DNA of 64,000 bases from Escherichia coli (lineage in GTDB: Bacteria > Pseudomonadota > Gammaproteobacteria > Enterobacterales > Enterobacteriaceae). The position numbers and the translations under genes are program-made. Location of the stretch: the NCBI RefSeq assembly GCF_024502345.1, contig NZ_JALDNN010000003.1. The stretch is one strand, 5' to 3'. Positions within the stretch are counted from its first letter, which is position 1, and the number at the start of each line of letters is the position of its first letter. The notes under the pieces are model-generated. The model worked only from the letters and a program-made list of their open reading frames with translations, did not search any database and was not told the DNA's origin. Shown one piece after another: positions 8,217 to 34,380 of the stretch.

Positions 8217-9176
8217 ATGGCCAGTGAAGATTTACTCTTTTACCGTGACCGGATTCTGGAGCGAATTGAAAAGCTCAGATCCTTTCTGAATGACCATCAG
8301 CCGGTGATGGCCGAGCTGATGACTGTGGGGACCGTCACACGACACGAAGAGCGGTTGAAAGAGGTGAACCCCATCGAGGTGAGTACTATTTCAGATGCCT
8401 CCGTGGATGAAATTATCCGTGTTATTCAGGATTTCTGTATCGATGACATTGATGTACTCAGCAGGAATTCGACGAAAGTGACAACCAAATACCCGGGGTT
8501 GATTATTGTTCCTGAGGGTGCCGAACAGCTGAGCGGAATTATTTGCGATATAAATGATGCCAAAAGTGACTTTGCCTCTGCAATGAAAAGGGTGAATTCG
8601 GAGAAACACATCCGGTTTAAGGAAGTTCACCGTAAGCTTCCCGGTCTGGTGACTGCGCATTCCACTCGCAAAATTCTGTTTGTGGAAGAACAGCTCAAAA
8701 AAGTTACTTTTGCCTGGCGGCTAAACCGAAACCAGGTAAAAACAAACGCAAGTGATCTCATCGCGATGCTGGATAAGCGTCGTTTAGTAGCGGTCAAATC
8801 GCCCGTGACAACTGACCTGACAGTGGTGGCGAACATCGATAGAGCGAAGGCATTACTGGAAAGAAAAGTACTGAGAGACGGCGAAGGGTATCGCCTTTGT
8901 CGAACCAATACCTTCCCGGTTCCGATAGCGCATTTGTTCACATACCGGCCTGAAGGCAAGGAGCGTGGAAGTAGCAAATATGCCGAGACTGATTACAAGG
9001 TGGTGAAAGCCTCATTACCCATTTTTGGCGTCGGACAAAAGCCAACAATTAAAAGACTTCAGGACTGGGTGCCAGCGCAGGATGAAGCACTGTCCAATGG
9101 TCGAAGGAGCAACCATAGCTACACGGAACTTGTACCCGGTGCAGATCTTGGCATTTTCATTATGAGAAAGGTCTGA
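8217..9176 (+). CDS. Tus-like (replication terminus site-binding protein family) homologue, divergent
   Basis: ATG with GGAG 7 nt upstream; 319 aa; blocks recalled from E. coli Tus: [23 protein letters not shown] vs [32 protein letters not shown] vs [18 protein letters not shown] vs VRLPGVLCY; comparison is from memory. Confidence 0.5.
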   Translation: [319 protein letters not shown]

Positions 9177-9186
9177 GGAGAAAAGC

Positions 9187-10095
9187 ATGCAATGGATTTC
9201 CACGACCAGCCAGAAACTTGATGAGAGACTTTATCGTGTCTGTGTCTGGGTGAAAAAATACCATGAGGATGCCATCAACCGTGTTGTGTTGACGGTTGAT
9301 CTCAGTAAGGCCCGCCATGACCCGATAGAGGACCAGGTACGGGCCGAGTTACTGTGTGGGCATTATTTTCTGATGCGGAAAGAGAACAACGCAAAATCGG
9401 CGCCAGCGGATCAGAACTTTGAATTTTTGCCTGACGGCCGCAACCTGAGCTGGCAGACGTCGACACCGGGGCTTCAGCACCTTCTCCTGAACAGCAATGT
9501 ACCTGAGTCCCTTAGGCCCCTGGCTGATTACATTCAGATGCGTCTGGCCAAGCTGACCATGGTCCCGATGTCGGGAACCATCATGAAAGCCGCACTGGAA
9601 GACAGCATCAGCTGGGTAAAAGTGGATCTGCGATACTACTGGCAGTATGAACTGGTTAATTCCCATCTGGGGCCTGTTCAGGTAACTCATAAGGCGCTTG
9701 TGCGATTCGGGAGGCTGGCAAAACACGATGAAAACGCTAGTGCAATTCGAATGCTTCGCCAGCGGTTGTCATCACCGTTTATTCAGGAATTTGAGATGCC
9801 TGGGGAGGAGCTGAAGCGCAAGCAGAAGATCATGAATACCGTTGATGTGAAAATGCTTTTCCACACACATTATCCGGGCCAGAAATTACTGCTGGCCCGA
9901 TATGCTAATGGTTGGGTGCTGGTGGATTGTTTCCTGTTCCACCATATCAAACCCAAAAAGAAGGCGAAAAACAAAACCAAAGCGGGTAAATCAGAAACTC
10001 AAAATATCAAATCGACGGGGAGTGAGGATCATGGAACTGGGCATTATGGTGTGCATCGTGTTGTTACTCTCACTGGCAGCGGTGTGGATCAGTAA
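9187..10095 (+). CDS. hypothetical protein (302 aa) with lysine-rich C-terminal tail
   Basis: ORF track; begins 11 bp after the Tus-like stop; no recognised domain. Confidence 0.4.
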   Translation: MQWISTTSQKLDERLYRVCVWVKKYHEDAINRVVLTVDLSKARHDPIEDQVRAELLCGHYFLMRKENNAKSAPADQNFEFLPDGRNLSWQTSTPGLQHLLLNSNVPESLRPLADYIQMRLAKLTMVPMSGTIMKAALEDSISWVKVDLRYYWQYELVNSHLGPVQVTHKALVRFGRLAKHDENASAIRMLRQRLSSPFIQEFEMPGEELKRKQKIMNTVDVKMLFHTHYPGQKLLLARYANGWVLVDCFLFHHIKPKKKAKNKTKAGKSETQNIKSTGSEDHGTGHYGVHRVVTLTGSGVDQ

Positions 10096-10375
10096 CAAGA
10101 CGGTCGGATTGCTGGAAATCCATTACTTTAAGCGGCCGCTGAGCATGGAGTATGCAGCCTGGCTGCGTGTGATGTGTGCCGGTTTGCTATTTATTTTTAT
10201 TCAGATGGTCCCGGCATTCACGTTTCTGTATACCCTGAAGCTGGTGGCACTGTTAAATCTGGGCGTGCAGACGATGAAGCTAAACGGGGTTTATAAATTT
10301 AAACGCACCGGGATGATGCCGCCGAAAGACGCCCCTCATGATCTTGGCCGCTTTAATCCATTTCGAAAGAAGTAA
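10031..10375 (+). CDS. hypothetical small membrane protein (114 aa)
   Basis: ATG at 10031 preceded by GAGGA; two hydrophobic helices; overlaps the 3' end of 9187..10095 in another frame, so one of the two may be mis-called. Confidence 0.3.
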   Translation: MELGIMVCIVLLLSLAAVWISNKTVGLLEIHYFKRPLSMEYAAWLRVMCAGLLFIFIQMVPAFTFLYTLKLVALLNLGVQTMKLNGVYKFKRTGMMPPKDAPHDLGRFNPFRKK

Positions 10376-10521
10376 TCCTCATTAGCGCCCCGAAGGAGTA
10401 TATAGTAAAAACAGTGTCTATTCGCGTGTGAGTGAGTGACAGGGCTTTACATATAACGTCAGCGGCTTTCATTTCAAACGTACATACTGTGTATAATGGT
10501 ATGTACGTTTTTTATTTGCGC

Positions 10522-10739
10522 CGAGTCCTTCGGCGGTACCCGCCCGTGAACTCTGCCGCAAGCATGCCATTTCCGATGCCACGTTTTACACCTGGCGTAA
10601 GAAGTATGGCGGTATGGAGGTGCCTGAAGTTAAGCGCCTGAAGTCGCTTGAGGAAGAGAACGCCAGACTCAAGAAGCTGCTTGCCGAAGCCATGCTGGAT
10701 AAAGAGGCGCTTCAGGTGGCTCTTGGGCGAAAGTACTGA
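10522..10739 (+). pseudogene. IS3-family orfA remnant (5'-truncated, no start codon)
   Basis: In-frame translation matches the IS3-family OrfA C-terminus (FYTWRKKYGGM motif, leucine-zipper-like region); an upstream stop lies immediately before the first in-frame codon. Confidence 0.5.
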
Positions 10740-10762
10740 CGACAGACCAGAAGCGGGAAGCC

Positions 10763-11596
10763 GTGATGTTGATGTGTGATGCGACCGGTCTGTCGCAACG
10801 TCGTGCCTGCAGGCTTACAGGTTTATCCCTGTCGACCTGCCGCTATGAGGCTCACCGTCCGGCTGCTGATGCGCATTTATCAGGGCGCATCACTGAGCTG
10901 GCACTGGAGCGCAGGCGTTTTGGCTACCGTCGTATTTGGCAGTTGCTGCGCCGTGAAGGGCTTCATGTTAATCATAAGCGCGTGTACCGGCTTTATCACC
11001 TCAGTGGCCTGAGCGTAAAACGCAGAAGACGTCGTAAAGGGCTGGCAACAGAACGTCTGCCGCTGCTCCGTCCGGCGGCGCCCAATCTGACCTGGTCGAT
11101 GGATTTCGTCATGGACGCACTTTCCACCGGTCGCAGGATCAAGTGTCTTACCTGCGTCGATGATTTCACAAAGGAATGCCTGACGGTCACTGTTGCCTTT
11201 GGGATTTCAGGCGTTCAGGTCACGCGTATTCTGGACAGCATTGCACTGTTTCGAGGCTATCCGGCGACGATAAGAACTGACCAGGGGCCGGAGTTCACTT
11301 GCCGTGCACTGGATCAATGGGCCTTTGAGCATGGTGTTGAGTTGCGCTTAATCCAGCCGGGCAAGCCAACGCAGAACGGATTTATTGAGAGCTTTAACGG
11401 ACGATTTCGCGATGAATGTTTGAATGAGCACTGGTTCAGCGATATCGTTCATGCCAGGAAAATTATTAATGACTGGCGGCAGGATTATAACGAATGCCGC
11501 CCGCACTCCACGCTGAATTATCAGACACCGTCTGAATTTGCAGCGGGCTGGAGAAAGGGTCATTCTGAGAATGAAGATTCCGACGTTACTAACTGA
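10763..11596 (+). CDS. IS3-family transposase OrfB (DDE integrase-like catalytic domain)
   Basis: 277-aa ORF with motifs TDQGPEFT and [16 protein letters not shown] typical of IS3-family OrfB; frame is -1 relative to the orfA remnant. Confidence 0.7.
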
Positions 11597-11786
11597 GTGT
11601 TGTATCTAATCGTGGGGGCAGGTCACTTGGTCGGTGCCATGACGCGACTATTTTCAGGTGATTGCTGATACAACTCACAACAGGCTTGAGCAATGTCGCT
11701 CTTTGCCGTTTCGTGGAAGTGAATAGCCCCCGTACTTAGTTTTTCAGGCACGATACCTTGATTAATGAGCTTGGAGTATTCAGGAA

Positions 11787-12606
11787 GGCACTGTTGCAAA
11801 GTTAGCGATGAGGCAGCCTTTTGTCTTATTCAAAGGCCTTACATTTCAAAAACTCTGCTTACCAGGCGCATTTCGCCCAGGGGATCACCATAATAAAATG
11901 CTGAGGCCTGGCCTTTGCGTAGTGCACGCATCACCTCAATACCTTTGATGGTGGCGTAAGCCGTCTTCATGGATTTAAATCCCAGCGTGGCGTCGATTAT
12001 CCGTTTCAGTTTGCCATGATCGCATTCAATCACGTTGTTCCGGTACTTAATCTGTCGGTGTTCAACGTCAGACGGGCACCGGCCTTCGCGTTTGAGCAGA
12101 ACAAGCGCGCGACCATAGGCGGGCGCTTTATCCGTGTTGATGAATCGCGGGATCTGCCACTTCTTCACGTTGTTGAGGATTTTACCCAGAAACCGGTATG
12201 CAGCTTTGCTGTTACGACGGGAGGAGAGATAAAAATCGACAGTGCGGCCCCGGCTGTCGACGGCCCGGTACAGATACGCCCAGCGGCCATTGACCTTCAC
12301 GTAGGTTTCATCCATGTGCCACGGGCAAAGATCGGAAGGGTTACGCCAGTACCAGCGCAGCCGTTTTTCCATTTCAGGCGCATAACGCTGAACCCAGCGG
12401 TAAATCGTGGAGTGATCGACATTCACTCCGCGTTCAGCCTGCATCTCCTGCAGCTCACGGTAACTGATGCCGTATTTGCAGTACCAGCGTACGGCCCACA
12501 GAATGATGTCACGCTGAAAATGCCGGCCTTTGAATGGGTTCATGTGCAGCTCCATCAGCAAAAGGGGATGATAAGTTTATCACCACCGACTATTTGCAAC
12601 AGTGCC
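11787..12606 (-). mobile_element. IS26-family insertion sequence, variant allele, inverted relative to the other two copies
   Basis: 820 bp bounded by 14-bp inverted repeats GGCACTGTTGCAAA / TTTGCAACAGTGCC; Tnp differs from the other two copies at three residues (EMQAERG vs EMLAERG; ALVLLK vs ALALLK; IIDATLG vs IIGATLG). Confidence 0.95.
11839..12543 (-). CDS. tnpA: IS26-family transposase Tnp26 (234 aa)
   Basis: MNPFKGRHFQRDIILWAVRWYCKYGISYRELQEM... matches the IS26/IS6-family transposase recalled from memory; start taken at the MNPFKG methionine. Confidence 0.95.
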   Translation of the reverse strand: MNPFKGRHFQRDIILWAVRWYCKYGISYRELQEMQAERGVNVDHSTIYRWVQRYAPEMEKRLRWYWRNPSDLCPWHMDETYVKVNGRWAYLYRAVDSRGRTVDFYLSSRRNSKAAYRFLGKILNNVKKWQIPRFINTDKAPAYGRALVLLKREGRCPSDVEHRQIKYRNNVIECDHGKLKRIIDATLGFKSMKTAYATIKGIEVMRALRKGQASAFYYGDPLGEMRLVSRVFEM

Positions 12607-12807
12607 GTTAATTCTGCTGGCGGTAGTCGTTTGGTTTACCCTGCCAGAGAGGAAAATACGGCAATTGGGCAAACAGCGTGCCACACCTCACTGATTAGGG
12701 TGTGGTTAACACTTCATTAATTAAACAGTCATTACTCTTACTTAACTGTGTGATATACCTATTTAGGGTTTGAAACATTAGAGTTTGAAATAGGTAAGGT
12801 CTGAGCA

Positions 12808-13953
12808 ATGACTGAGCAAACGTCCCCCGCACAACTTGATCTCGATAGCGCGGCTCAGCCCCCCAGAGTTTATATCCGGGGGGACTGGGTGTTGGCGCAT
12901 TACTGCGTTTTGGAGCCGCGCGTTGCGCAATTGCGCGCTAATATGCCCAGTGGGGGGGTATTTGATCTCAACCAACTGGGGGCGTTAGATACCGCCGGTG
13001 CAACGTTGTTAGCTCTGCTTCTGGGTGAGGACCGTGTAGCAAATTTACGCGAACTTGCGCCTAAATTGCCAGAAGAGCGGAGGATATTACTTGAAACGGT
13101 AAGCCATGTATTGCCTGACTTAACCCCTGAGTTGTCTGAAAAACCCACACGGTTTTGGCTTGAGATGCTGGCTAATACCGGCCGTTCGGTAGATAACTTA
13201 TGGCAAGATATTAAGTCACTATTGGGCTTTATTGGTCTGGCGCTGGAAACCTTGCTGGGAACACTTTTTCGCCCCTCCCGCTGGCGCATTACCTCATTAA
13301 TTGCCAATATTCAACAGATTGGCCTCAATGCTGTGCCGATCATTATGTTGCTCACCTTTTTGGTGGGGGCAGTTATCGCCTTTCTCGGTGCAACCGTACT
13401 CACTACTTTCGGCGCGGGCATTTTTACCGTCGATTTGGTGGTATTTTCTTTTCTACGTGAATTTGCGGTACTGCTTACCGCGATCCTGATGGCAGGGCGA
13501 ACAGCCAGTGCTTTTACCGCTGAAATTGGCTTGATGAAAGCCAATGAAGAGATTGATGCTATCCAAACACTGGGCTTGAATCCGGTCGAACTGTTGGTGC
13601 TACCGCGCGTCTTGGCACTATTGATCTCTCTGCCGATGCTAACCTTTATTGGCATGGTTTGCGGTATTTTCGGTGGCATGGTGGTGTGTGCCTTAACACT
13701 GGATATCTCTCCCACTATGTTTTTGTCGATTATGCAAAACAGTAATGGGTTGCAGCATTTTCTGGTGGGAATAAGTAAAGCCCCTATTTTTGCTTTCCTG
13801 ATTGCTATTATTGGCTGTCTGGAGGGGTTCAAAGTAACCGGTAGTGCTGAATCAGTCGGGGTTCATACCACCACCAGTGTGGTGCATTCGATCTTTGTGG
13901 TGATTTTGCTTGATGCCGTGGCAGCGCTATTTTTCATGGAAATGGGGTGGTGA
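12808..13953 (+). CDS. ABC transporter permease, MlaE family, with N-terminal STAS-like domain
   Basis: 381 aa; soluble N-terminal ~110 aa followed by multi-helix permease region (AVPIIMLLTFLVGAVIAFLGATVLTTFGAG...) typical of MlaE/YrbE permeases. Confidence 0.8.
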   Translation: MTEQTSPAQLDLDSAAQPPRVYIRGDWVLAHYCVLEPRVAQLRANMPSGGVFDLNQLGALDTAGATLLALLLGEDRVANLRELAPKLPEERRILLETVSHVLPDLTPELSEKPTRFWLEMLANTGRSVDNLWQDIKSLLGFIGLALETLLGTLFRPSRWRITSLIANIQQIGLNAVPIIMLLTFLVGAVIAFLGATVLTTFGAGIFTVDLVVFSFLREFAVLLTAILMAGRTASAFTAEIGLMKANEEIDAIQTLGLNPVELLVLPRVLALLISLPMLTFIGMVCGIFGGMVVCALTLDISPTMFLSIMQNSNGLQHFLVGISKAPIFAFLIAIIGCLEGFKVTGSAESVGVHTTTSVVHSIFVVILLDAVAALFFMEMGW

Positions 13954-13958
13954 GCCAA

Positions 13959-14750
13959 ATGACGCAAGATGCAATCATTCAAATTCGCGATCTGGTTAAC
14001 TGCTTTGGCGTACAGTGCGTGCATCAAGGGTTGAATCTTGATGTTAAGCGCGGCGAAGTTCTTGGCGTGGTTGGTGGCTCGGGTACCGGTAAATCTGTTC
14101 TGTTACGCAGTATTGTTGGGTTACGTCGTCCGACTGACGGGAAAATTCATGTTTTTGGCAAGGATTTAATGGCACTGTCAGGTCAATCCCGCGCCATGGT
14201 CGAGCGCCGATTCGGCGTATTATTTCAACGAGGCGCACTGTTCAGTTCTCTAACCGTGACCGAGAACGTGGCATTACCATTAATAGAAAACGCCGGATTA
14301 CCCCGGTCTGAGGCTGAGCGATTGGCTCAGGTTAAACTGGCACTGGCTGGGCTACCGCCGGGCACTGGCAGTAAGTATCCAGCATCTCTGTCGGGTGGTA
14401 TGGTCAAGCGTGTTGCGCTAGCCCGTGCCTTAGCACTGGACCCGGATATTCTGTTTCTTGATGAACCGACTGCGGGTCTTGATCCCATTGGTGCGGCGGC
14501 GTTTGACAGTTTGATCCGCACCCTGCGGGATGCCCTCAATCTAACGGTATTCTTGGTGACCCACGATCTGGATACGCTGTATACACTGTGTGATCGTGTG
14601 GCGGTGCTTTCGCAGAAAAAAGTGCTGGTGGTTGATACTCTGGATAAAGTTGCAGCGACTGATGATGGCTGGATTCAGGCGTATTTTCATGGCCCACGTG
14701 GCCGGGCTGCTTATCAGGCAGCGGCAATTAACAGTGGAGAGAGGTTGTAA
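13959..14750 (+). CDS. ABC transporter ATP-binding protein (MlaF-like)
   Basis: Walker A GGSGTGKS, ABC signature LSGGMVKRVALARAL, Walker B ILFLDEPTAGLD; ATG at 13959 follows the permease stop. Confidence 0.85.
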   Translation: MTQDAIIQIRDLVNCFGVQCVHQGLNLDVKRGEVLGVVGGSGTGKSVLLRSIVGLRRPTDGKIHVFGKDLMALSGQSRAMVERRFGVLFQRGALFSSLTVTENVALPLIENAGLPRSEAERLAQVKLALAGLPPGTGSKYPASLSGGMVKRVALARALALDPDILFLDEPTAGLDPIGAAAFDSLIRTLRDALNLTVFLVTHDLDTLYTLCDRVAVLSQKKVLVVDTLDKVAATDDGWIQAYFHGPRGRAAYQAAAINSGERL

Positions 14751-14751
14751 T

Positions 14752-15690
14752 ATGGAAACCCGTGCTCATCATGTCGTTATTGGTTTGTTCACTCTTATTG
14801 TGGTGAGTGCCGCGCTGCTGTTTTGCCTATGGCTGACAAATTCCGGTTCTGATCGCCAGTTCAGATTGTACGATATCGTTTTCAATGAGCCTGTGAGTGG
14901 CCTGTCACAGGGTAGCACCGTTCAGTACAGCGGGATTCGAGTCGGTGAGGTGACGCAATTACGCCTGGACCGAGACAATCCGAATAAGGTTTGGGCACGT
15001 ATTCGCGTTTCTGCATCTACTCCGATACGCGAAGATACCCAAGCTCGTCTCACCGTCGCGGGTATTACCGGCACCTCAAATATTCAATTCAGCAGTGGCA
15101 GCCAGACCAGCCCGTTGCTGGAGGGCAAAGATGACGAGGTTCCTATCATTATTGCTACCCCTTCGCCGATGAGCCAGTTACTGGCTAACGGTGAGAATTT
15201 CATGACCAATGCGAATGAAGTGTTGGTGCGTTTGAACCAGTTGCTGGCACCGGATAACCAGCAGCGCCTAGTAACGACACTGGATAATCTCGCGCTGGTC
15301 ACCCAAACTGTGGCTGATCAACGTGGTGATCTCCGTACCCTGTTGCAGCAGTTGGCGCAGGCCAGTAAACAGGCTAATGAGACACTGACTCAAACCAATC
15401 GCCTGCTGCGTAATGCTAACGGCTTAATGGATGGGCAGGGGAAACAACTGGTCAGTGATGCCGCCAAAACCATGGCATCGTTGCAAAATACCAGTACCAT
15501 CCTCAATAAATTGGTGAGTGAAAATAAAACCTCACTCAATAACGGGATGCAAGGGATGAATGAGCTGGGGCCGGCAGTAGATGAGCTGCGCAGAACATTA
15601 GCGACATTACGTGCCGCCGTTTCTCGTTTGGAAGAAAACCCAGCGGCCTTGTTGCGCGGCCGTGAAAGAACACAGGAGTTTACGCCTTAA
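14752..15690 (+). CDS. MCE-domain (MlaD/PqiB-like) periplasmic substrate-binding protein
   Basis: ATG at 14752 with GGAGAGAGG upstream; N-terminal single TM helix (HHVVIGLFTLIVVSAALLFCLWL) followed by an MCE-like domain and a Q/L-rich coiled-coil tail. Confidence 0.75.
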   Translation: METRAHHVVIGLFTLIVVSAALLFCLWLTNSGSDRQFRLYDIVFNEPVSGLSQGSTVQYSGIRVGEVTQLRLDRDNPNKVWARIRVSASTPIREDTQARLTVAGITGTSNIQFSSGSQTSPLLEGKDDEVPIIIATPSPMSQLLANGENFMTNANEVLVRLNQLLAPDNQQRLVTTLDNLALVTQTVADQRGDLRTLLQQLAQASKQANETLTQTNRLLRNANGLMDGQGKQLVSDAAKTMASLQNTSTILNKLVSENKTSLNNGMQGMNELGPAVDELRRTLATLRAAVSRLEENPAALLRGRERTQEFTP

Positions 15691-16331
15691 TGCTCTCTTT
15701 TAATGTGATGCGCTATGCAGGCCGCCGCGTGTGGCTATTGATGATATCCGGGGGGGCGATACTGCTCTCTGCCTGCACCATTTTACCTTCGGCCCCTGTA
15801 TCACAAGTTTATCTTCTGCCGGTGCCACCTGCAGTCAGTGTGCCACACGCGCAGACAGTAAACTGGTCATTACGGGTTTCACAACCGGCGACGAACCAGT
15901 TTCTTAATAGCTCACGCATAGCGGTGCAGCCTCAGGGCCAGGAGATTGCGGTTTATAAAAACTCCCGTTGGAGTGATTCGGCGCCGATTTTGGTGCGCAA
16001 TCGTCTTATTCAGGCGTTCCGTAGCGATGGGCGAATCCGTGCAGTCAGTAGCGACGATGATAGCTTGCAGGCTGATGTGGAGTTGAGTGGTGATCTGTCC
16101 GCGTTCCAAGGGGTATACCATGTTGGTAGCAGCGAAGTGCTGATCCGTTTTGATGCTCGGCTGGTAAGAATTTCAGATCGTAGGATTATTGCGACTCGCC
16201 AGTTTGACATTCGCCAACCGATAAAAGGTAACGAGATGAACGAGGTGGTTCAGGCCTTTGGCCTGGCCAGTGACCAGTTAGCCACTCAAGTGCTCAACTG
16301 GACGATGCAGCAATCCCCTGCGCAGGGTTGA
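15690..16331 (+). CDS. ABC-transport auxiliary lipoprotein (lipobox LLSAC)
   Basis: Start overlaps the preceding stop (TAATG coupling); signal peptide with lipobox LLSAC; position and size fit the lipoprotein partner of MCE systems. Confidence 0.6.
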   Translation: MLSFNVMRYAGRRVWLLMISGGAILLSACTILPSAPVSQVYLLPVPPAVSVPHAQTVNWSLRVSQPATNQFLNSSRIAVQPQGQEIAVYKNSRWSDSAPILVRNRLIQAFRSDGRIRAVSSDDDSLQADVELSGDLSAFQGVYHVGSSEVLIRFDARLVRISDRRIIATRQFDIRQPIKGNEMNEVVQAFGLASDQLATQVLNWTMQQSPAQG

Positions 16332-16349
16332 TATCTAAACCAGCACCGG

Positions 16350-16395
16350 TTGGTTTTATCTGAGGCGAGTTGGCAGTAGCTAACTCGCCTTTTTT
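16350..16395 (+). terminator. putative intrinsic terminator of the Mla/MCE-like operon
   Basis: Hairpin GGCGAGTT...AACTCGCC followed by TTTTTT shortly after the stop at 16331; coordinates approximate. Confidence 0.5.
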
Positions 16396-16678
16396 ATCGT
16401 CTAGTTTAATGATTCAAGGCGAATAATTGCGTCTAAGGGGAAAATATTCTCTTTATTGTTTTGTGATTAGTATCTCATTGAGTAAGGGATTAATGGTGTT
16501 TGAGTTATCTATTTCATTGTTTTTAATATGTTTTTATTTAAATTGTTCTGTGGTTATCTTTTTTGTTAAAGAGAACAATATTCTCCAAGCATTAAAAACA
16601 ACAAGAAAATAGGAAAAGTATTTCTCCCCGTAAAACCCTAAGATAAAAATAATCCAAATCACTGATTAATTACTTCAA

Positions 16679-17956
16679 ATGCAAAAAATAACACATCAAC
16701 AATTACTCGATTGGTTGAAAAAGGAAGTGAAACTTTCATTAGGTTGTACTGAGCCTATTGCTATTGCGTATGCTGCCGCAGTGGCTGCTAAATATCTCAA
16801 CGCACCGATATTAAAAATAACGGGGAATATATCGGAGAATCTGTATAAAAATGCGATGGGAGTCACTATTCCGGGAACAAGCTATTGCGGAGTCACTCTT
16901 GCGGCGGCAATAGGGGCTATTGGTGGTAACGCGGATGCCGATTTAGAAGTATTAAAAGATATTACTGCGACACAAATTACCGAAGCCTATATATTTAATG
17001 AATCAGGTAACGTGTGTCTAAACGCAGTAGATGCTACGGATTTTATTTTTATCGATATTACGCTATATAGTCTTAGTGATCAGTGCCGGGTAGTGATTCA
17101 AGGTAGCCATACTAATGTCACTGAAGTTTATATTAATAATATAAAGCAAATATTAGTCCGAGACCTAATTGCCGCCAATGATAGTGGGGTACTACCCGAA
17201 TTTTCCCTTAACGACGCATTTAAATTTGTAACCGATGTCGCCGCTAAAGACATCATGTTTATGCTGAAAAGTGCTGAGATTAATACCGCGCTTTCTGACG
17301 AGGGGCAAAGGAAGAACTATGGTTTGAACGTGAGTGGCGCGTTGTCGCAAGCCAGAAAAAATGGCTTTATCAGCACTGACTTACTGAGTCAAATGTTGAT
17401 CAACACCACTGCGGCATCAGATGCCCGTATGGGCGGCGCACCCTTACCCGCGATGTCAAATTATGGCTCTGGTAATCAGGGGATTACCGTGACAATGCCG
17501 GTAGTGACACTTGCCCGACATCTTAATACAGATGATGAAACACTGGCCCGGGCATTAGCGTTGGCCCATCTAGCCGCAATCTCAATTCATATGCGTTATA
17601 CCCGATTGTCTGCATTGTGTGCGGCGTCAACGGCAGCAATGGGGGCGGCGGCAGGTATGAGTTGGTTATTGACCCAAGATTTTCAAACTATCTCCTACGC
17701 GGTCAGTAATATGATCAGTGATATTAGTGGCATTATTTGCGATGGTGCATCAAATAGTTGTGCCATGAAAGTGTCTACCGCTACCGCCTGTGCATTTAAG
17801 TCGGTGTTGATGGCGCAACAAAATAGTGTTGCAGGGGAGCGTGATGGCATTGTTTCCTGCGATGTTGAAGGTTCTATCAATAATTTATGTAAATTAGTGT
17901 TATCGCCAATGAGGCAAACAGATAAAGAAATTATCAGTATAATGACACGTAAATAA
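16679..17956 (+). CDS. L-cysteine desulfidase CyuA/YhaM-family (serine dehydratase-like) protein
   Basis: 425 aa; N-terminal blocks LSLGCTEPIAIAYAAAVAA and GVTIPGTSYCG match the YhaM/CyuA family recalled from memory; AT-rich gene after a long AT-rich leader. Confidence 0.7.
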   Translation: MQKITHQQLLDWLKKEVKLSLGCTEPIAIAYAAAVAAKYLNAPILKITGNISENLYKNAMGVTIPGTSYCGVTLAAAIGAIGGNADADLEVLKDITATQITEAYIFNESGNVCLNAVDATDFIFIDITLYSLSDQCRVVIQGSHTNVTEVYINNIKQILVRDLIAANDSGVLPEFSLNDAFKFVTDVAAKDIMFMLKSAEINTALSDEGQRKNYGLNVSGALSQARKNGFISTDLLSQMLINTTAASDARMGGAPLPAMSNYGSGNQGITVTMPVVTLARHLNTDDETLARALALAHLAAISIHMRYTRLSALCAASTAAMGAAAGMSWLLTQDFQTISYAVSNMISDISGIICDGASNSCAMKVSTATACAFKSVLMAQQNSVAGERDGIVSCDVEGSINNLCKLVLSPMRQTDKEIISIMTRK

Positions 17957-18037
17957 ATATTACGGTTTAACCGCGTGGCCTAACGTCATTATTAATAATG
18001 ATCGGCGGGCTATCGTTAAAATTTAAAGGGACAAATA

Positions 18038-18557
18038 ATGAGCAAATCAAAATCGATCGCGACTCTGGTTATCCATGCCGGAGATCAAGTTGACCGGGGC
18101 AATAATGCTATTTTTCCACCGATTACTACCGCCAGTTCCTTCATTCAGCCAAATTTAGGCGAAGAAGGGGAGTTTTGTTATTCCCGTTGCAGTAACCCGA
18201 CAAGATATGCATATGAAACCGCCTTGGCTGAGTTGGAAGGAGGTATCTATGCTACGGCAACCGCTTCCGGTATGGCAGCAACTGCACTTATATTGGAATT
18301 GCTACCTAAGGATTCCCATGTATTAGTAATGAAAGGGGTCTATGGCGGTACTTATCGGTTGTTTGAACGTCTGCGTAAACAAACTTCAGGTACGACATTC
18401 AGTTATGTCGATCTTAATGATCTGGCGTCAGTAGAGCGCCATATTCAAGAGAATACAGGTCTAATCTGGATCGAAACGCCCACTAACCCACTGTTGGAAT
18501 TAGTTGATATTGAAGCAGTATGCCAGGTTGCCAAAAGCAGGGGCATAATGAGCTGCG
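18038..18557 (+). pseudogene. PLP-dependent cystathionine beta-lyase/gamma-synthase family gene, 3'-truncated by IS1
   Basis: N-terminal ~173 aa of a MetB/MetC-family enzyme (LVIHAGDQ..., SRCSNPTRYAYETALAELEGG, GLIWIETPTNPLL); the reading frame runs directly into the IS1 left end. Confidence 0.7.
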
Positions 18558-18612
18558 GGTGATGCTGCCAACTTACTGATTTAGTGTATGATGGTGTTTT
18601 TGAGGTGCTCCA

Positions 18613-18888
18613 GTGGCTTCTGTTTCTATCAGCTGTCCCTCCTGTTCAGCTACTGACGGGGTGGTGCGTAACGGCAAAAGCACCGCCGGACATCAGCGCT
18701 ATCTCTGCTCTCACTGCCGTAAAACATGGCAACTGCAGTTCACTTACACCGCTTCTCAACCCGGTACGCACCAGAAAATCATTGATATGGCCATGAATGG
18801 CGTTGGATGCCGGGCAACCGCCCGCATTATGGGCGTTGGCCTCAACACGATTTTCCGCCATTTAAAAAACTCAGGCCGCAGTCGGTAA
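18613..18888 (+). CDS. insA: IS1 InsA
   Basis: [43 protein letters not shown]... matches IS1 InsA. Confidence 0.9.
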
Positions 18889-19310
18889 CCTCGCGCATAC
18901 AGCCGGGCAGTGACGTCATCGTCTGCGCGGAAATGGACGAACAGTGGGGATACGTCGGGGCTAAATCGCGCCAGCGCTGGCTGTTTTACGCGTATGACAG
19001 GCTCCGGAAGACGGTTGTGGCGCACGTATTCGGTGAACGCACTCTGGCCACACTGGAGCGTCTTCTGAGCCTGCTGTCGGCCTTTGAGGTCGTGGTATGG
19101 ATGACGGATGGCTGGCCGCTGTATGAATCCCGCCTGAAGGGAAAGCTGCACGTTATCAGCAAGCGTTACACTCAGCGCATTGAGCGACATAACCTGAATC
19201 TGAGACAACATCTGGCAAGGCTGGGACGGAAGTCACTGTCGTTCTCAAAATCGGTGGAGCTGCATGACAAGGTCATCGGGCATTATCTGAACATAAAACA
19301 CTATCATTAA
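18807..19310 (+). CDS. insB: IS1 InsB reading frame (expressed as InsAB' by -1 frameshift)
   Basis: Frame encodes ...[28 protein letters not shown]... characteristic of IS1 InsB. Confidence 0.85.
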
Positions 19311-19412
19311 GTTGGAGTCATTACCAGAGTTTATTGTCAAATAAAAAGGCAGATTTCTCTGCCTTAATACACAATATACATAGTTCAAGGTACTATATAT
19401 AACGCAGGGGCG

Positions 19413-20603
19413 CTACTCATCCAGCGCCTCACGCATGAACTTCGTCATCGCTTTCTTACCTGCGTCAATGTTACGGATATAGCGGGAAACCATTTCTGCA
19501 TTGCTCCAGTTACCCATCTCCATGATCTGCAAGTGCGTGTACCCGGCATCAGCAAGTTCGATGGCGCCGCCAACCCTAACGCTGTGACCAGTCCAGCATC
19601 GGGTGCCCGCTTCCTGCGGATGAAGTTCATCCCAAAACGCTTCAAAGGCCCGGAGCAATGTGTTTTTACTGAGCATACCCTCATCATCGACAATAATGGG
19701 CTTTCCATTTTTCCCGATCGGGGGGCGGGTAGGTCGGTAAGGCATATTATGATTTTTCAGCAGCGTATTGATCTCATTCCCTTTGCTCCGGAGACCCCAT
19801 CCAGGGGGCATATATCCGCTGTCCTGAAAGTTAACTGCCTGGAAGAGATAATCCTTCGGATGGCTTTGCTGGTCCCTTTTGACCATACCCATCAGCCTGA
19901 TTAGGGTGGCAGTGAGATGAGGGGTCAGATGATAGGTAAGCAGGGTACTGACAGTGGATTTTGTCCGGTACACCGTCAGGGTAAAACTGCCTGTCTGTTC
20001 ATTCAGCACAAGGTCCTGCATCCGAATGCGCCGAAGTTCTGCTGAGCGCAACAGTGTTTCAAAACCTGTCCAGATAATGCAAAGGTCTCGGAGTTTGCGC
20101 ACCGACTGTGTCGTACCGTGGGCTTTAATCAAAGCTTTCAGGTCGGAGACTAGGAATGGCGTTGCCTGACGAGTCACTTTTTGCTCTCGGGCTTCAGCTT
20201 GTTCGAGGCTTGCAAGAATACTCTTGACCTTGGATGTGATGATCCCAGGGCGATCGAGTGCTTTCCTATGGATACTGTTCAGCGCGTGCAGACAACCTTT
20301 AATGCTGCTGTGTGACAGCGAGCCCTGAAGATAGTCCAGATAGGACAACAACGGGGGTTGAGTCACCGGGAGAGAACTGGCAGGCCAGGCTTCGTTTCCC
20401 TCCTTTCCTGCATTAGCTTGGTACCACTCGTTCCAGGAACGCAGCCATTGAAGGTAAGTTTTAGCCGTGTGGTATTTCATATGAGAAAAGTAAAAAATGA
20501 GCTCCTTAAGGTCATTATTGGGCACCTCAAACGTGACCAGTTCCTGATGGAGGTCTGAGTCTTCAAACTGTCTGGTTACTGGCTTGCTGTTCATGGTGGT
20601 CAC
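19413..20603 (-). CDS. tyrosine site-specific recombinase (phage-type integrase)
   Basis: 396 aa; C-terminal catalytic region HSVRVGGAIELADAGYTHLQIMEMGNWSNAEMVSRYIRN fits the R..HxxR..Y tyrosine-recombinase pattern. Confidence 0.85.
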   Translation of the reverse strand: MTTMNSKPVTRQFEDSDLHQELVTFEVPNNDLKELIFYFSHMKYHTAKTYLQWLRSWNEWYQANAGKEGNEAWPASSLPVTQPPLLSYLDYLQGSLSHSSIKGCLHALNSIHRKALDRPGIITSKVKSILASLEQAEAREQKVTRQATPFLVSDLKALIKAHGTTQSVRKLRDLCIIWTGFETLLRSAELRRIRMQDLVLNEQTGSFTLTVYRTKSTVSTLLTYHLTPHLTATLIRLMGMVKRDQQSHPKDYLFQAVNFQDSGYMPPGWGLRSKGNEINTLLKNHNMPYRPTRPPIGKNGKPIIVDDEGMLSKNTLLRAFEAFWDELHPQEAGTRCWTGHSVRVGGAIELADAGYTHLQIMEMGNWSNAEMVSRYIRNIDAGKKAMTKFMREALDE

Positions 20604-21197: not shown

Positions 21198-21839
21198 ATG
21201 AGAATTAAACATCTAATATTTTTACCTGTTCCCTTCATTTCCTTTTATTTAAACGCGGCGAGCCTGGACGAAATCAATCAAAAGCTGGATGAAGGTTACC
21301 GTTACGCCTGTAACGCAACTCAGACGGGTAATGCAGAAGCCGCCTCCCTCGCGCTGGAGAACTACAGAACAAAATTCATCAACTCAGCATCACGATCTGG
21401 TTTCAGCGAGATAATGAATGTAGAAATAAACAAAGTTGTCGCGGAATTTTTCAGAAAGGGCATGATCCAGGGGAACACCAGCACTGGGGCCTGTGAGACT
21501 CCAGCGGAGCTGCTGCTCCAGACCTCTCAGGCGGTTTATTCCCGCCAGTCAAAGTCAGCACTGGCGTCAGCCCTCGATGGTGTCCGATTCACTGAATATG
21601 CGGCACAGGCCTACCCGATTTTTTATTCAATCCAAAGTACAGGTATCAGTGAGGATGAAGTAATTGAACAGATTAATAAAATAGGAAACAATGCAATAAT
21701 TAATAACCAAAATGCAATTGATGTCAGTAATGCGACAAATGCAATGAAAGAAGTAGCGAAAGTCCTTTTTTCAGCCCGAAGTGACCCGGAGCTCATGAAA
21801 TTTATGATGGATTATATTAATAACCACAAACTGCATTGA
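21198..21839 (+). CDS. hypothetical secreted protein (signal peptide)
   Basis: N-terminus MRIKHLIFLPVPFISFYLNAAS is signal-peptide-like; 213 aa; no recognised domain. Confidence 0.45.
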   Translation: MRIKHLIFLPVPFISFYLNAASLDEINQKLDEGYRYACNATQTGNAEAASLALENYRTKFINSASRSGFSEIMNVEINKVVAEFFRKGMIQGNTSTGACETPAELLLQTSQAVYSRQSKSALASALDGVRFTEYAAQAYPIFYSIQSTGISEDEVIEQINKIGNNAIINNQNAIDVSNATNAMKEVAKVLFSARSDPELMKFMMDYINNHKLH

Positions 21840-26527: not shown

Positions 26528-27355
26528 ATGTCTGGAACATTCAAGGGGCTGACCCAGGCCCAGATCGATAGAAGGCTCAAGGACGGGCGTGGTCAAGGCC
26601 AGGGATCAGACTACAAGCCGTTCATCTACACAAGGGACGTGTCCTCGCTGGGTCGCTCCCACCGCCTGCCTGGCAGCAAGACCCGGCGTTTACACCATCT
26701 TCTATCCGATCTTGAACTGGCCATCTTCCTGACCTTGGATCGGTCTCCCCATGTCACCGATATCCGTGAACAGTTTCCGATGCGGGTCGAAGATACGGTG
26801 CGCATCGCCGAGGAGCTTGGCCTGCCCCACGGTTGTTACAAGGGTACCCCGCAGGTACTGACCAGCGACTTTCTGGTGGATTTCGAAGATCCTCAGCGCC
26901 CGAGCATCGCGATTCAGGCCAAGTACAGTACCGACCTGCAGAAGCCTGAAGTTATCGAGAGGCTTGAGCTTGAAAGGCGCTACTGGCAGGAAAAAGGTAT
27001 TCCCTGGGTCATCGTTACGGAGCGCGAGGTATCCAAGGTGGCATTTGCCAATATCCAATGGCTCTATCCTGCCCATGCTGAAGGCGACATCGCTCAGGAC
27101 GATCTCGCCCATTACCAGCAGCTGTTTCTGCTCGAGTTTCAGCGTCACCCAGACCGGAAGCTGACCGCTATTGCCCAAGGACTGGATACCTCCGGCCAGC
27201 TGGAGGCCGGTCAGGCGCTCTATTGGCTACGCCAGTTGCTGGCCCGGCACTGTTTCCTTTTCGATCTTGACACTCCTTACCGGGAGCTGAAGCCGAAAGA
27301 CCTGGTTGCCAACTCTCATCAAATGCATCAGGAGCTGAGCAGTGTTGCCCGTTAA
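26528..27355 (+). CDS. tnsA: Tn7-like transposase endonuclease subunit TnsA
   Basis: Blocks RRLKDGRGQGQG, HHLLSDLELA, IREQFP, LELERRYWQEKGIPW match Tn7 TnsA recalled from memory. Confidence 0.9.
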   Translation: MSGTFKGLTQAQIDRRLKDGRGQGQGSDYKPFIYTRDVSSLGRSHRLPGSKTRRLHHLLSDLELAIFLTLDRSPHVTDIREQFPMRVEDTVRIAEELGLPHGCYKGTPQVLTSDFLVDFEDPQRPSIAIQAKYSTDLQKPEVIERLELERRYWQEKGIPWVIVTEREVSKVAFANIQWLYPAHAEGDIAQDDLAHYQQLFLLEFQRHPDRKLTAIAQGLDTSGQLEAGQALYWLRQLLARHCFLFDLDTPYRELKPKDLVANSHQMHQELSSVAR

Positions 27356-29429
27356 TCAGGTGTTCCGGATGGGGGAACTGCGAAAGCGCCTGCTTTGGTC
27401 CGGTACCGAGCAGGCAATCTGGATCGATATCGATTCGGACACGGCGTTGCCCGAACCGATATCGATTGTAGAGCTGGAGCGTCTGATCATGGAGCGGGAG
27501 CTGGAGAGCATTGCCGATCCCTTCGAGGAAACAGTCCTACGGGAGGTTGAGGAAGGTTCCCTTGATCAGCAGAAGCGTGATGAAGCTTGGGGAATGCTGG
27601 CGGATTTTGTGCACAACCCCCAGCTTTTCGTGCGGCGCCCCAGAGGGCTCATTGTCAGAGGCATCATGGAGCGCCATGGTGTCACCAATCAGACGGTGTA
27701 TAGGTTACTGAGGCGCTACTGGCAGCGAGGCATGTGCAGGAATGCCCTCTTGCCGGACTATGTCAACTCGGGCGCCCGTGGCAAGCGCAGAAAGCCGAAC
27801 CAGGCCAAGCTGGGCAGGCCCAGAGTGGTGATGGAGGGGAAAGGGAGCAATGTCACGCCGGACATCGAGCGCATTTTTCGCCGGGTCATCGAGGAACGTT
27901 TGCTCAAGGAAAAACATCCGTCCATTCCTGATGCCTACGCCGCCGGGCTGAATCTGCTCCGTGCTGTTCTGACGGAGCTGCCGACCTCCGAACTGCCTAC
28001 ATTGGGGCAGTTCCGTTACTTCTATGGGCGCGAATATCACTTCACCGACACCTTGCCATGCAGGGTGTCCGCAGTGGATTTTGCCAAGGACTTCCGACCG
28101 CTCAGCAGTACATCGACGACCGAGGCACTGGGGCCAGGATACCGCTACCAGATCGATGCCACCATCGCCGATATCTATCTGGTTTCAGAACATGATCGCA
28201 GCCTTATCGTCGGCAGGCCTGTCGTTTACATGGTGATCGACGTGTTCAGCCGCATGGTCGTTGGTATGTACGTCGGATTCGAGGGACCTTCCTGGGTCAG
28301 TGCCATGGTGGCATTGGCCAACACGGTCGCCGACAAGGTTGAGTATTGCCGCCAGTATAGCGTGGAGATCGATGCCAGCGACTGGCCGGTCAAAGGCTTG
28401 CCGGATGTGGTGCTGGCCGATAAGGGCGAACTGAATGGCACCAAGGTGGAAGCATTTTCCCAAGCCTTCGGCGTTCGCATCGAGAATGCACCGGCCAGGC
28501 GAGGAGATGCCAAGGGGATCGTCGAGCGTTATTTCCGGACGGTGCAGGAGCGTTTCAAGCCCTATGCCAGCGGTGTGGTCGAGGACACCACCAGCCGGAA
28601 GCGGGGTGGCCACGACTACAGACTTGATGCCAGTCTGACCTTGCCCGAGTTCACCCAGATCATCATTGCCGGCATCCTCTACCACAACAACTTTCATACC
28701 TTGAGCAAATACGACAGAACCTCTGGTATGCCGGGCGATCTGCCAGCCATCCCGGTCATGCTGTGGAACTGGGGCTTGGCCAACTTGACCGGCCGGTTAC
28801 GTACTGCGCCCGAGGAGCTGGTGCGGATAAATCTCTTGCCCCATGAGTCGGCCACGGTTTCGGAGCTGGGAATCAGACTGTTCGGCTGCTTCTACACCTG
28901 CCAGGAAGCAATCAGGGAGGGTTGGTTTCACCGAGGCCAGGGGCGCCGGCCGACAGGGGTAACGGTCGCATACGATCCGCGTAGCGCCGACCACATCTAC
29001 CTGCGGCCGTCCAATAGTCTCAAGGACTACTGGGTTTGCGATCTTGCCGACCGCAGTCGACGCTTCAGGGGGATGACCTTCTGGGATGTCTGGCTGCTGT
29101 CCAGAGAGGAACGGCGTAGCGATACCAACGCGGCGGCGGAAGCTTTGGTAGAGAGAGGCAATCTTCTGAAGCAGATCGAGTCCATCGTTGCCCAGGCAGA
29201 GGATGCCAGTCCGCTCAAAACGGGTATGACCACGAAGGATCTGGGAACCCAGATCCGCGAGAACAAGCAGCAGGAAAAGCGCCAGGAACGCCAGAAAACA
29301 GCATTCAAACCGGATAAAGCACAGCAGGAAAAGCCAGCCGAGGTGATCCCACTGCGGGGCGAGAAGCAGGAAGATTATGCCTTCCCAGATCTCAGTGACC
29401 TGATATTCAAGGAGGAAGAGGATGACTGA
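27342..29429 (+). CDS. tnsB: Tn7-like transposase TnsB (DDE, Mu-like)
   Basis: 695 aa; blocks TVYRLLRRYWQRG, ALLPDYVNSGARG, YQIDATIADIYLV, VVYMVIDVFSRMVVGMYVGFEGPSW match Tn7 TnsB. Confidence 0.9.
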   Translation: MLPVNQVFRMGELRKRLLWSGTEQAIWIDIDSDTALPEPISIVELERLIMERELESIADPFEETVLREVEEGSLDQQKRDEAWGMLADFVHNPQLFVRRPRGLIVRGIMERHGVTNQTVYRLLRRYWQRGMCRNALLPDYVNSGARGKRRKPNQAKLGRPRVVMEGKGSNVTPDIERIFRRVIEERLLKEKHPSIPDAYAAGLNLLRAVLTELPTSELPTLGQFRYFYGREYHFTDTLPCRVSAVDFAKDFRPLSSTSTTEALGPGYRYQIDATIADIYLVSEHDRSLIVGRPVVYMVIDVFSRMVVGMYVGFEGPSWVSAMVALANTVADKVEYCRQYSVEIDASDWPVKGLPDVVLADKGELNGTKVEAFSQAFGVRIENAPARRGDAKGIVERYFRTVQERFKPYASGVVEDTTSRKRGGHDYRLDASLTLPEFTQIIIAGILYHNNFHTLSKYDRTSGMPGDLPAIPVMLWNWGLANLTGRLRTAPEELVRINLLPHESATVSELGIRLFGCFYTCQEAIREGWFHRGQGRRPTGVTVAYDPRSADHIYLRPSNSLKDYWVCDLADRSRRFRGMTFWDVWLLSREERRSDTNAAAEALVERGNLLKQIESIVAQAEDASPLKTGMTTKDLGTQIRENKQQEKRQERQKTAFKPDKAQQEKPAEVIPLRGEKQEDYAFPDLSDLIFKEEEDD

Positions 29430-31032: not shown

Positions 31033-31033
31033 C

Positions 31034-32528: not shown

Positions 32529-32536
<8 letters not shown>
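31034..32536 (+). CDS. tnsD: Tn7-like target-selection protein TnsD (TniQ family)
   Basis: 500 aa; blocks HTLFPLYAPF, FRKHRKGFSALQH, YAWLYRHDRHWL, YAESVGEYQIRRL parallel Tn7 TnsD (HTLFPLYAPF, FRKHRKAFSYLQH, YAWLYRHDRDWL, YSESVEDYQIRRI). Confidence 0.85.

Positions 32537-34380
<1,844 letters not shown>

Follow-up and report, generated by a model that had tools for sequence, protein, structure and literature searches.

An IS1 scar without target duplications at the probable edge of a Yersinia-like segment on an Escherichia coli contig

In a 64,000-nucleotide stretch of Escherichia coli contig NZ_JALDNN010000003.1 (RefSeq assembly GCF_024502345.1), hereafter the window, an intact cyuA-like gene of the L-cysteine desulfidase family is followed by the 5′ fragment of a lyase gene of the pyridoxal phosphate (PLP)-dependent trans-sulfuration family, which ends abruptly at a complete copy of the insertion sequence (IS) IS1. 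Our reading, to which we give a probability of about three in four, is that IS1 captured a Yersinia-like chromosomal segment, that IS26 spread this segment among plasmids and that the same IS1 subsequently made adjacent deletions into a Gamma-Mobile-Trio (GMT) island. The truncated lyase gene would accordingly be the edge of a captured chromosomal block and not a gene broken in this replicon. Here, we describe the IS1 junctions and the origin of the DNA on either side, weigh the proposed history against its alternatives, and then turn to the predicted products of the two genes and to the neighbouring elements. The mechanism is a known one, the scar is of the textbook IS1 kind and the pseudogene is already annotated publicly: RefSeq lists it as 'PLP-dependent transferase, incomplete, missing C-terminus', beside an IS1 transposase.

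A complete IS1 without target duplications

The features on which the argument turns are the following (aa, amino acids; ORF, open reading frame):

16679-17956, plus strand: cyuA-like gene, intact, L-cysteine desulfidase family, 425 aa (PF03313 match, identity to E. coli CyuA)
18038-18557, plus strand: trans-sulfuration-family PLP lyase, 5′ fragment (172 codons and 1 nt), pseudogene (PF01053 positions 1-170 of 381)
18558-19325, plus strand: IS1, complete, 768 bp, without target-site duplication (insA 18613-18888, insB′ frame to 19310, A6C at 18864)

An earlier note, made from the letters of the window, had described a cyuA-like gene followed by a lyase gene truncated at the left inverted repeat (IRL) of IS1, and this description holds in all its elements. 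The two genes are separated by 81 bp, in which a search for a plus-strand terminator found none. The lyase ORF as called spans 18038-18562, its native DNA stopping at 18557; from 18558 onwards the sequence is that of the IRL, which supplies the final codon GGG and the TGA stop. The IRL (GGTGATGCTGCCAACTTACTGAT) and a matching right inverted repeat (IRR) each occur once in the window, where no chance matches are expected, and this IS1 is the only copy there. Its length (768 bp), its imperfect inverted repeats of about 23 bp, its InsA and DDE_Tnp_IS1 domains (PF03811, PF12759 and PF03400) and the A6C frameshift motif AAAAAAC at 18864, between insA and insB′, are those of the IS1 family.

The 9 bp on the two sides of IS1 differ, as the earlier note had also seen (TGAGCTGCG on the left, AGAGTTTAT on the right). 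Re-inspection for target duplications of 5-12 bp, including other lengths and offsets, found none at this IS1, and the two 20-bp flanks share no 5-mer. Since deletion and fusion events are expected to remove the 8-9-bp duplication, its absence is no argument against the identity of the element. A second IS1, which lies inside the cyuA-like gene of plasmid pKFu015_1, served as a positive control: it is flanked by a clean 8-bp duplication (TAATATCG), so the duplication test is able to detect a simple insertion.

The left flank: a Yersinia-like segment with a constant edge

The DNA to the left of IS1 is best matched by Yersinia chromosomes. In a scan of one genome per species with the cyuA-like protein, through which the lyase relatives were also found, close relatives occurred only in Yersinia frederiksenii, Y. 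vastinensis, Y. alsatica and Y. aldovae (81-88% aa identity), the next best being from Bacteroidales at about 40%. A homologue search with the 173-aa lyase fragment matched only proteins of up to about 300 aa and other fragments. The gene order in Y. frederiksenii is a major facilitator superfamily (MFS) gene, mlaE, an ATP-binding cassette (ABC) ATPase gene, mlaD, a lipoprotein gene, an oxidoreductase gene of the old yellow enzyme (OYE) type, the cyuA-like gene (426 aa), the lyase gene (386 aa) and an NhaC-family transporter gene (469 aa). Apart from the OYE gene, window positions 12607-18557 are collinear with Yersinia chromosomes (loci L005, L007 and L008) at 77-82% nucleotide identity, and include, upstream of the cyuA-like gene and within the same captured segment:

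12607-16391, plus strand: mlaE, ABC ATPase, mlaD and auxiliary-lipoprotein cluster, Yersinia-like (Pfam matches; 77-80% nucleotide identity to L005, L007 and L008)

The OYE-type NADH:flavin oxidoreductase gene sits between the lipoprotein and cyuA-like genes in Y. frederiksenii, Y. alsatica and Y. aldovae; at this place (L005 4353-5758) the window has a 348-bp AT-rich spacer (16331-16679). A strong intrinsic terminator with a 13-bp stem and a T run lies at 16362-16391, downstream of the lipoprotein gene.

The related-genome comparison proposed in the earlier note thus recovers the intact cyuA-like and lyase pair in Yersinia, with the NhaC-like transporter gene as a third member. In Y. frederiksenii (L005 7368-9954) the cyuA-like gene, the 386-aa gamma-lyase-like gene and the 469-aa NhaC-family gene are spaced by 86 and 16 bp, and the trio looks like an uncharacterised candidate operon for sulfur-amino-acid catabolism that is restricted to a few Yersinia species. 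Of this three-gene module the window keeps the cyuA-like gene intact; the full lyase gene and the transporter gene are missing. The earlier suggestion that a two-gene sulfur-amino-acid module had been lost therefore needs to be revised, because in its native host the module comprises three genes, and this replicon never carried all of them and still has the first one intact.

The segment is widespread and its right edge does not vary. It is 100% identical in 120 PLSDB plasmids from Citrobacter, Klebsiella, Escherichia, Enterobacter, Kluyvera and Raoultella and in 34 complete E. coli genomes. A junction probe, consisting of 60 bp of lyase and 25 bp of IS1 sequence, matched exactly in 91 PLSDB plasmids and, for E. 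coli, in 30 records; counted by complete E. coli genomes, the figure is 28. In none of the records with the segment did the lyase sequence run on past the IS1 junction. The 3′ part of the lyase gene is absent from the window (tblastn with the Yersinia protein recovers residues 1-173 only), and when the C-terminal 213 aa were compared with all PLSDB plasmids, the best match had 74% aa identity and came from unrelated Salmonella and Edwardsiella plasmids. A junction shared in this way, together with the lack of a 3′ half on plasmids, excludes both a sequencing error from which a full-length lyase could be recovered and a recent loss in this genome. The truncation had been described as a loss event; it appears instead to be the boundary of a captured Yersinia-like chromosome block, inherited unchanged in at least 91 plasmids.

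The right flank: one IS1, several neighbours

In contrast to the constant left junction, the DNA to the right of IS1 differs between plasmids, and five arrangements were found:

pABWA45_1 and AW1.7 (59 plasmids with the IS1-mltB junction): left of IS1, lyase fragment; right of IS1, mltB codon 2
ATCC 98082 plasmid: left of IS1, terminator after the lipoprotein gene (window 16373); right of IS1, mltB codon 2
Citrobacter p705SK3_1: left of IS1, lyase fragment; right of IS1, inside gmtZ
Citrobacter pRHBSTW-00446_2: left of IS1, lyase fragment; right of IS1, gmtY codon 11
Window, E. coli 1218KP and 5 plasmids: left of IS1, lyase fragment; right of IS1, 78 bp from the island end

The IS1 itself is identical in all of these variants (0 mismatches in 768 positions), whereas other IS1 copies on related plasmids differ from it at 14-25 positions. 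A leftward deletion by the same IS1 has removed the cyuA-like gene and the lyase fragment from the ATCC 98082 plasmid, where IS1 now abuts the terminator hairpin.

The commonest right neighbour of IS1 is mltB (59 plasmids, as against 5 with the rarer arrangement of the window); it is likely to have been the original neighbour, with the arrangement of the window a derived deletion. Every plasmid copy of the Yersinia-like mltB has the same junction, at which the IRR is joined to codon 2. The plasmid MltB is 92% identical to that of Y. enterocolitica, in which the order is mltB (plus), an amino acid-polyamine-organocation (APC) permease gene (minus), an amidohydrolase gene (minus), a TetR gene (minus), an MFS gene (plus) and mlaE (plus). 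Compared with this locus, the plasmid mltB and APC fragment have 80.8% nucleotide identity, the same divergence as the mla-lyase part. Judged by gene order and identity, both the mla-lyase and the mltB-APC blocks are of Yersinia-like origin.

The two blocks are permuted relative to the chromosome. The Yersinia chromosome has mltB about 7 kb upstream of mlaE and in the same orientation; the plasmids have it downstream of the lyase fragment, still in that orientation and with IS1 alone in between, and the DNA just upstream of the plasmid mlaE matches the 3′ end of the MFS gene. That a single IS1 connects the two ends of a contiguous chromosomal segment of about 13 kb is what circle excision or tandem amplification would be expected to give. 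The APC fragment is cut at the same point in every plasmid record, and two IS26 copies in direct orientation enclose the unit in pABWA45_1.

An island remnant in a split backbone site

To the right of IS1 in the window lies a short piece of a GMT island, followed by plasmid backbone. Together with their counterparts at the left end of the insertion, the features are:

10383-10390, no strand: left arm TAGCGCCC of the split backbone inverted repeat (comparison with pMAK1)
10391-10538, no strand: left end of the insertion, putative distal GMT border, 148 bp (abuts the left inverted-repeat arm in IncHI and Citrobacter backbones)
19326-19403, no strand: GMT island remnant, gmtY-proximal end, 78 bp (identity to Citrobacter island ends)
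19404-19415, no strand: spacer and right arm GCAGGGGCGCTA of the split backbone inverted repeat (overlaps the stop codon of the backbone integrase gene)
19413-20603, minus strand: tyrosine recombinase gene, IncHI backbone (PF00589; adjoins the naive site in pMAK1)

The earlier note had placed an integrase cluster directly to the right of IS1. What adjoins IS1 is in fact the 78-bp GMT tip, with the integrase gene beyond it, in the plasmid backbone. We rejected the integrase as a part of the IS1 event, since it is a backbone gene that lies beside the naive site in pMAK1; its product (396 aa) matched none of the NCBIfam models. The more general claim of the note, that the DNA on the two sides of IS1 was never contiguous, stands: a Yersinia-like segment lies to the left and a GMT tip to the right.

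In pMAK1, the equivalents of window positions 10390 and 19403 are adjacent and form an uninterrupted site (tagcgccc-gca-ggggcgcta), a hairpin with a small ORF on one side and the 3′ end of the integrase gene on the other. The naive site was also found in most of the pMAK1-like IncHI plasmids sampled in the search. The uninterrupted site in pMAK1 identifies window positions 10391-19403 (9,013 bp) as an insertion. GMT islands are reported to insert into naive sites with inverted repeats, whose arms are left flanking the island (preprint 10.1101/2023.03.28.534373), and in the window the island is likewise enclosed by the arms TAGCGCCC and GCAGGGGCGCTA. The 78-bp tip is 100% identical to the gmtY-side island end in three Citrobacter plasmids (L088, L085 and L089) and 91% identical to that of Vibrio alginolyticus pL294. 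At the homologous position, gmtX-gmtZ-gmtY are intact in L088 and partial in L089 and L085, and Citrobacter MOBH plasmids carry the same element between the arms of another inverted repeat (AAAACGCCC...GGGCGTTTT). The likeness to the described GMT islands (preprint 10.1101/2023.03.28.534373) lies in the homology of the gmtY-proximal border and in the insertion between inverted-repeat arms that are naive in sister plasmids; the difference is that gmtY, gmtZ and gmtX are absent from the window. With all three genes entirely lost, the island in the window should be unable to move by itself. We conclude that the 9,013-bp block is probably a decayed GMT island whose cargo took in an IS26 unit.

The intact island of L088 (gmtZ 8468-10495, gmtY 10495-11952, island end 12078) provides a reference onto which the right flanks of IS1 can be placed. 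They begin at 9348 (in gmtZ), at 11919 (gmtY codon 11) and, for the window, at 12001, and each is 100% identical to the reference from there on. The window appears to represent the deepest deletion of this nested series. Nested end points combined with one fixed IS end are the classical signature of IS1-promoted adjacent deletions, and together with the fixed left junction they bear out the suggestion of the earlier note that an IS1-mediated deletion or fusion was the cause.

Proposed history and its alternatives

The donor order from which we start is mltB, APC permease, amidohydrolase, TetR, MFS, mlaE, ABC ATPase, mlaD, lipoprotein, cyuA-like, lyase and nhaC-like, a composite of two Yersinia species. 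In the capture step, which is deduced from the comparison, IS1 would have acted at mltB codon 2 and at lyase codon 172, either by recombination of two direct IS1 copies or by intramolecular replicative transposition of one copy. The product would be a circle or tandem in which one IS1 joins the 5′ lyase fragment (at the IRL) to mltB (at the IRR); no target duplication is expected from capture by either route, and the 3′ part of the lyase gene and the transporter gene would remain in the donor. In the step of spread, which the plasmid records document, IS26 cut inside the MFS and APC genes to give an IS26-bounded unit of about 9 kb that moved among plasmids of Enterobacteriaceae; in one lineage, this unit lies in the cargo region of a GMT island, itself within the hairpin-like inverted repeat of IncHI-type plasmids. 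Finally, the same IS1 would have made rightward adjacent deletions by intramolecular replicative transposition, a mechanism proposed from the observed end points. These deletions would have removed mltB, the APC fragment, the right IS26 of the unit, the island cargo, gmtX, gmtZ and gmtY, stopping 78 bp from the island tip and leaving an inactive lyase fragment and an intact but orphan cyuA-like gene. A review describes the loss of direct repeats after intramolecular transposition as typical for IS1 and Tn9 (PMC9330008).

The separate parts of this scheme have close counterparts. In systems in which IS1 makes adjacent deletions or circles, the classical examples being deletions of the gal region, the r-determinant of R100/NR1 and Tn9, one IS end is likewise fixed while the other flank is nested, the IS is kept, the 9-bp duplication is lost and a single IS forms the bridge; here, by contrast, the case is built from comparative sequence, the cargo consists of Yersinia-like housekeeping genes instead of resistance genes and IS26 re-packaged the segment afterwards. 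The two direct IS26 copies in pABWA45_1 and the 100% identity of the segment across Citrobacter, Klebsiella, Escherichia and Enterobacter plasmids resemble IS26 pseudo-compound transposons or translocatable units, from which the window differs in having the left IS26 (11787-12606) alone beside the segment.

Several points weigh against this history. The donor genome itself was not found, the nearest Yersinia sequences being only about 80% identical, and the donor order is pieced together from Y. enterocolitica (mltB to mlaE) and from Y. frederiksenii and its relatives (MFS to nhaC-like). No record contains a two-IS1 composite, and the amidohydrolase-TetR-MFS interior of the putative composite is on no plasmid; for these two reasons we infer the circle or tandem intermediate, as we do the order of events and the preference for transposition over IS1 × IS1 recombination in the deletions. 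Homologous recombination with identical daughter IS1 copies at the three end points would be indistinguishable from adjacent deletion. We assign the 148-bp left end to the GMT island by its position only. In the ATCC 98082 plasmid (L090 15257-15262), the final ~21 bp of the GMT tip directly adjoin an APC-permease fragment, without an IS, an arrangement that we cannot explain.

The most substantial competitor, although we consider it clearly less probable than IS1 capture followed by adjacent deletion, is homologous recombination, in which a second IS1 inserted 78 bp from the GMT tip and recombined with the lyase-associated IS1, so that everything between them was deleted and a single hybrid IS1 free of duplications remained. 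This would yield the same end product, down to the lack of a target duplication, and these plasmids do carry several IS1 copies. Such a course, however, calls for IS1 to have inserted independently in gmtZ, in gmtY and near the tip, with a recombination after each of the three insertions, and a single IS1 with successive deletions is simpler. Moreover, the sampled islands are free of IS1 at all three end points, and the IS1 with 0 of 768 positions different in all variants contrasts with the 14-25 different sites of other nearby copies.

A plain insertion of IS1 into a lyase gene that was still intact on this replicon, the module having once been whole, with later loss of the downstream half through unrelated events, is very improbable and, judged on the public plasmids, refuted. 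IS1 insertions into genes are common, as the cyuA-like gene of pKFu015_1 with its duplication illustrates, but the 3′ half of the lyase gene is on no PLSDB plasmid (74% aa identity at best), no record has lyase sequence past the junction and the commonest other flank of IS1 is the opposite end of the Yersinia segment (mltB) and not lyase DNA. More remote still, to the point that we regard it as negligible, is an assembly artefact. IS1 is multicopy, and short-read assemblies often break or mis-join contigs at such repeats; yet an identical left junction is shared by 91 plasmids and 30 E. coli records and an identical right junction by 5 plasmids and the 1218KP chromosome, which stem from many independent complete assemblies.

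Predicted products of the two genes

The cyuA-like protein has a full SDH_alpha domain (PF03313, E 4e-52) and shows 50% identity to E. coli K-12 CyuA along the entire protein (E 2e-121); NCBIfam models gave no match to it. It can be aligned with the crystallised CyuA of Methanococcus maripaludis (MmCyuA, PDB 9he0/9fsl), in which C287, C329 and C336 are the strictly conserved [4Fe-4S] cysteines, Cys23 and Glu25 form a catalytic pair that is unique to CyuA compared with serine dehydratases, and the active site also contains Arg223, Asn239 and Lys339 (PMC12647591). The equivalents in the window protein are Cys314, Cys354 and Cys361 for the cluster, Cys23 and Glu25 within a GCTE motif at residues 22-25 for the catalytic pair, and Arg250, Asn266 and Lys364 for the remaining active-site residues. 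The name cyuA-like is justified at the sequence level, and the conversion of cysteine to pyruvate, NH3 and H2S is a predicted activity only. The similarity to the E. coli cyuPA system, which consists of an L-cysteine importer and the CyuA desulfidase (PMC9040844), extends to the 50% CyuA identity, the cluster cysteines and the Cys/Glu pair; in contrast to that system, the partners of the Yersinia cyuA-like gene encode a cystathionine-gamma-lyase-like enzyme and an NhaC-family transporter, and not CyuP.

The lyase fragment corresponds to residues 1-173 of the 386-aa Y. frederiksenii lyase (94% identity), an alignment of the kind that the earlier note had proposed. In the intact Yersinia lyase the PLP Schiff-base lysine is Lys200 (STSKY, within an S-x-K motif), beyond the break, as the fragment ends at residue 172. 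It keeps 45% of the protein, while the missing 55% includes the catalytic lysine and the C-terminal domain, so the fragment has neither a full-length PF01053 domain (about 380 aa) nor the Schiff-base lysine and is expected to be inactive. The full-length Yersinia orthologue aligns end to end with the cystathionine-gamma-lyase-like XometC of Xanthomonas (PDB 4ixs; E 1e-129), the S-x-K PLP motif included, from which the window copy differs in retaining 45% only and lacking the PLP lysine. The scores against the NCBIfam lyase equivalogs were all under their cut-offs, and we therefore assign the lyase to no subfamily.

What the scar can tell

By itself the scar matters little, and its value is that of a worked example in which a missing duplication, combined with comparative data, recovers a history: capture of about 13 kb, repackaging by IS26, residence in a GMT island on an IncHI plasmid and erosion of the island by IS1. 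Truncation of a gene on a mosaic plasmid does not have to reflect a function lost by the host. The most interesting residue is incidental, namely the GMT remnant in IncHI-type plasmids and the perfectly conserved orphan cyuA-like gene. One might speculate, with little confidence, that the GMT remnant targeted the terminator-like hairpins of enterobacterial IncHI/MOBH megaplasmids and that the orphan gene has been kept because it is functional. In that case, the host range and target type of GMT islands would exceed the mainly Vibrio examples by which they are defined, and the cyuA-like gene, 100% identical across Citrobacter, Klebsiella, Enterobacter and E. coli plasmids, might serve cysteine catabolism or H2S-based stress protection. 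A literature search for an IS26/mltB/mla Yersinia-like plasmid unit found no description.

Neighbouring elements

Two further mobile elements precede the Yersinia-like segment within the insertion:

10539-11786, plus strand: ISSen4 (IS3 family), 5′-truncated remnant (annotation of the 99.9% identical L004 and L090)
11787-12606, minus strand: IS26, left boundary of the Yersinia-like segment (comparison with annotated relatives)

A complete ISSen4 is present in Citrobacter plasmid L091. The 148-bp stretch to the left of the ISSen4 remnant is also 99-100% identical to short stretches of Salmonella and Acinetobacter plasmids (including L086), in unrelated contexts. The Yersinia-like DNA beside the left IS26 is 158 bp shorter in the window than in pABWA45_1 and AW1.7, and a small ORF is cut; this shortfall suggests an IS26-adjacent deletion. 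Further copies of IS26 are found in the window at 47569-48388 and 53743-54562. In pMAK1 (L003 7261-8028), a different IS1, with 25 mismatches and without a target duplication, replaces the 450 bp of window positions 21275-21724, a further IS1-associated deletion that arose independently in this plasmid family. Farther downstream the window carries Tn7-like tnsABCDE (about 26528-34151) and then, from about 35830 onwards, sHsp20 and clpK (99.97% identity to the annotated E. coli 1218KP), which belong to a heat-resistance island of the locus of heat resistance (LHR)/transmissible locus of stress tolerance (tLST) type, about 17 kb downstream of the IS1 scar.

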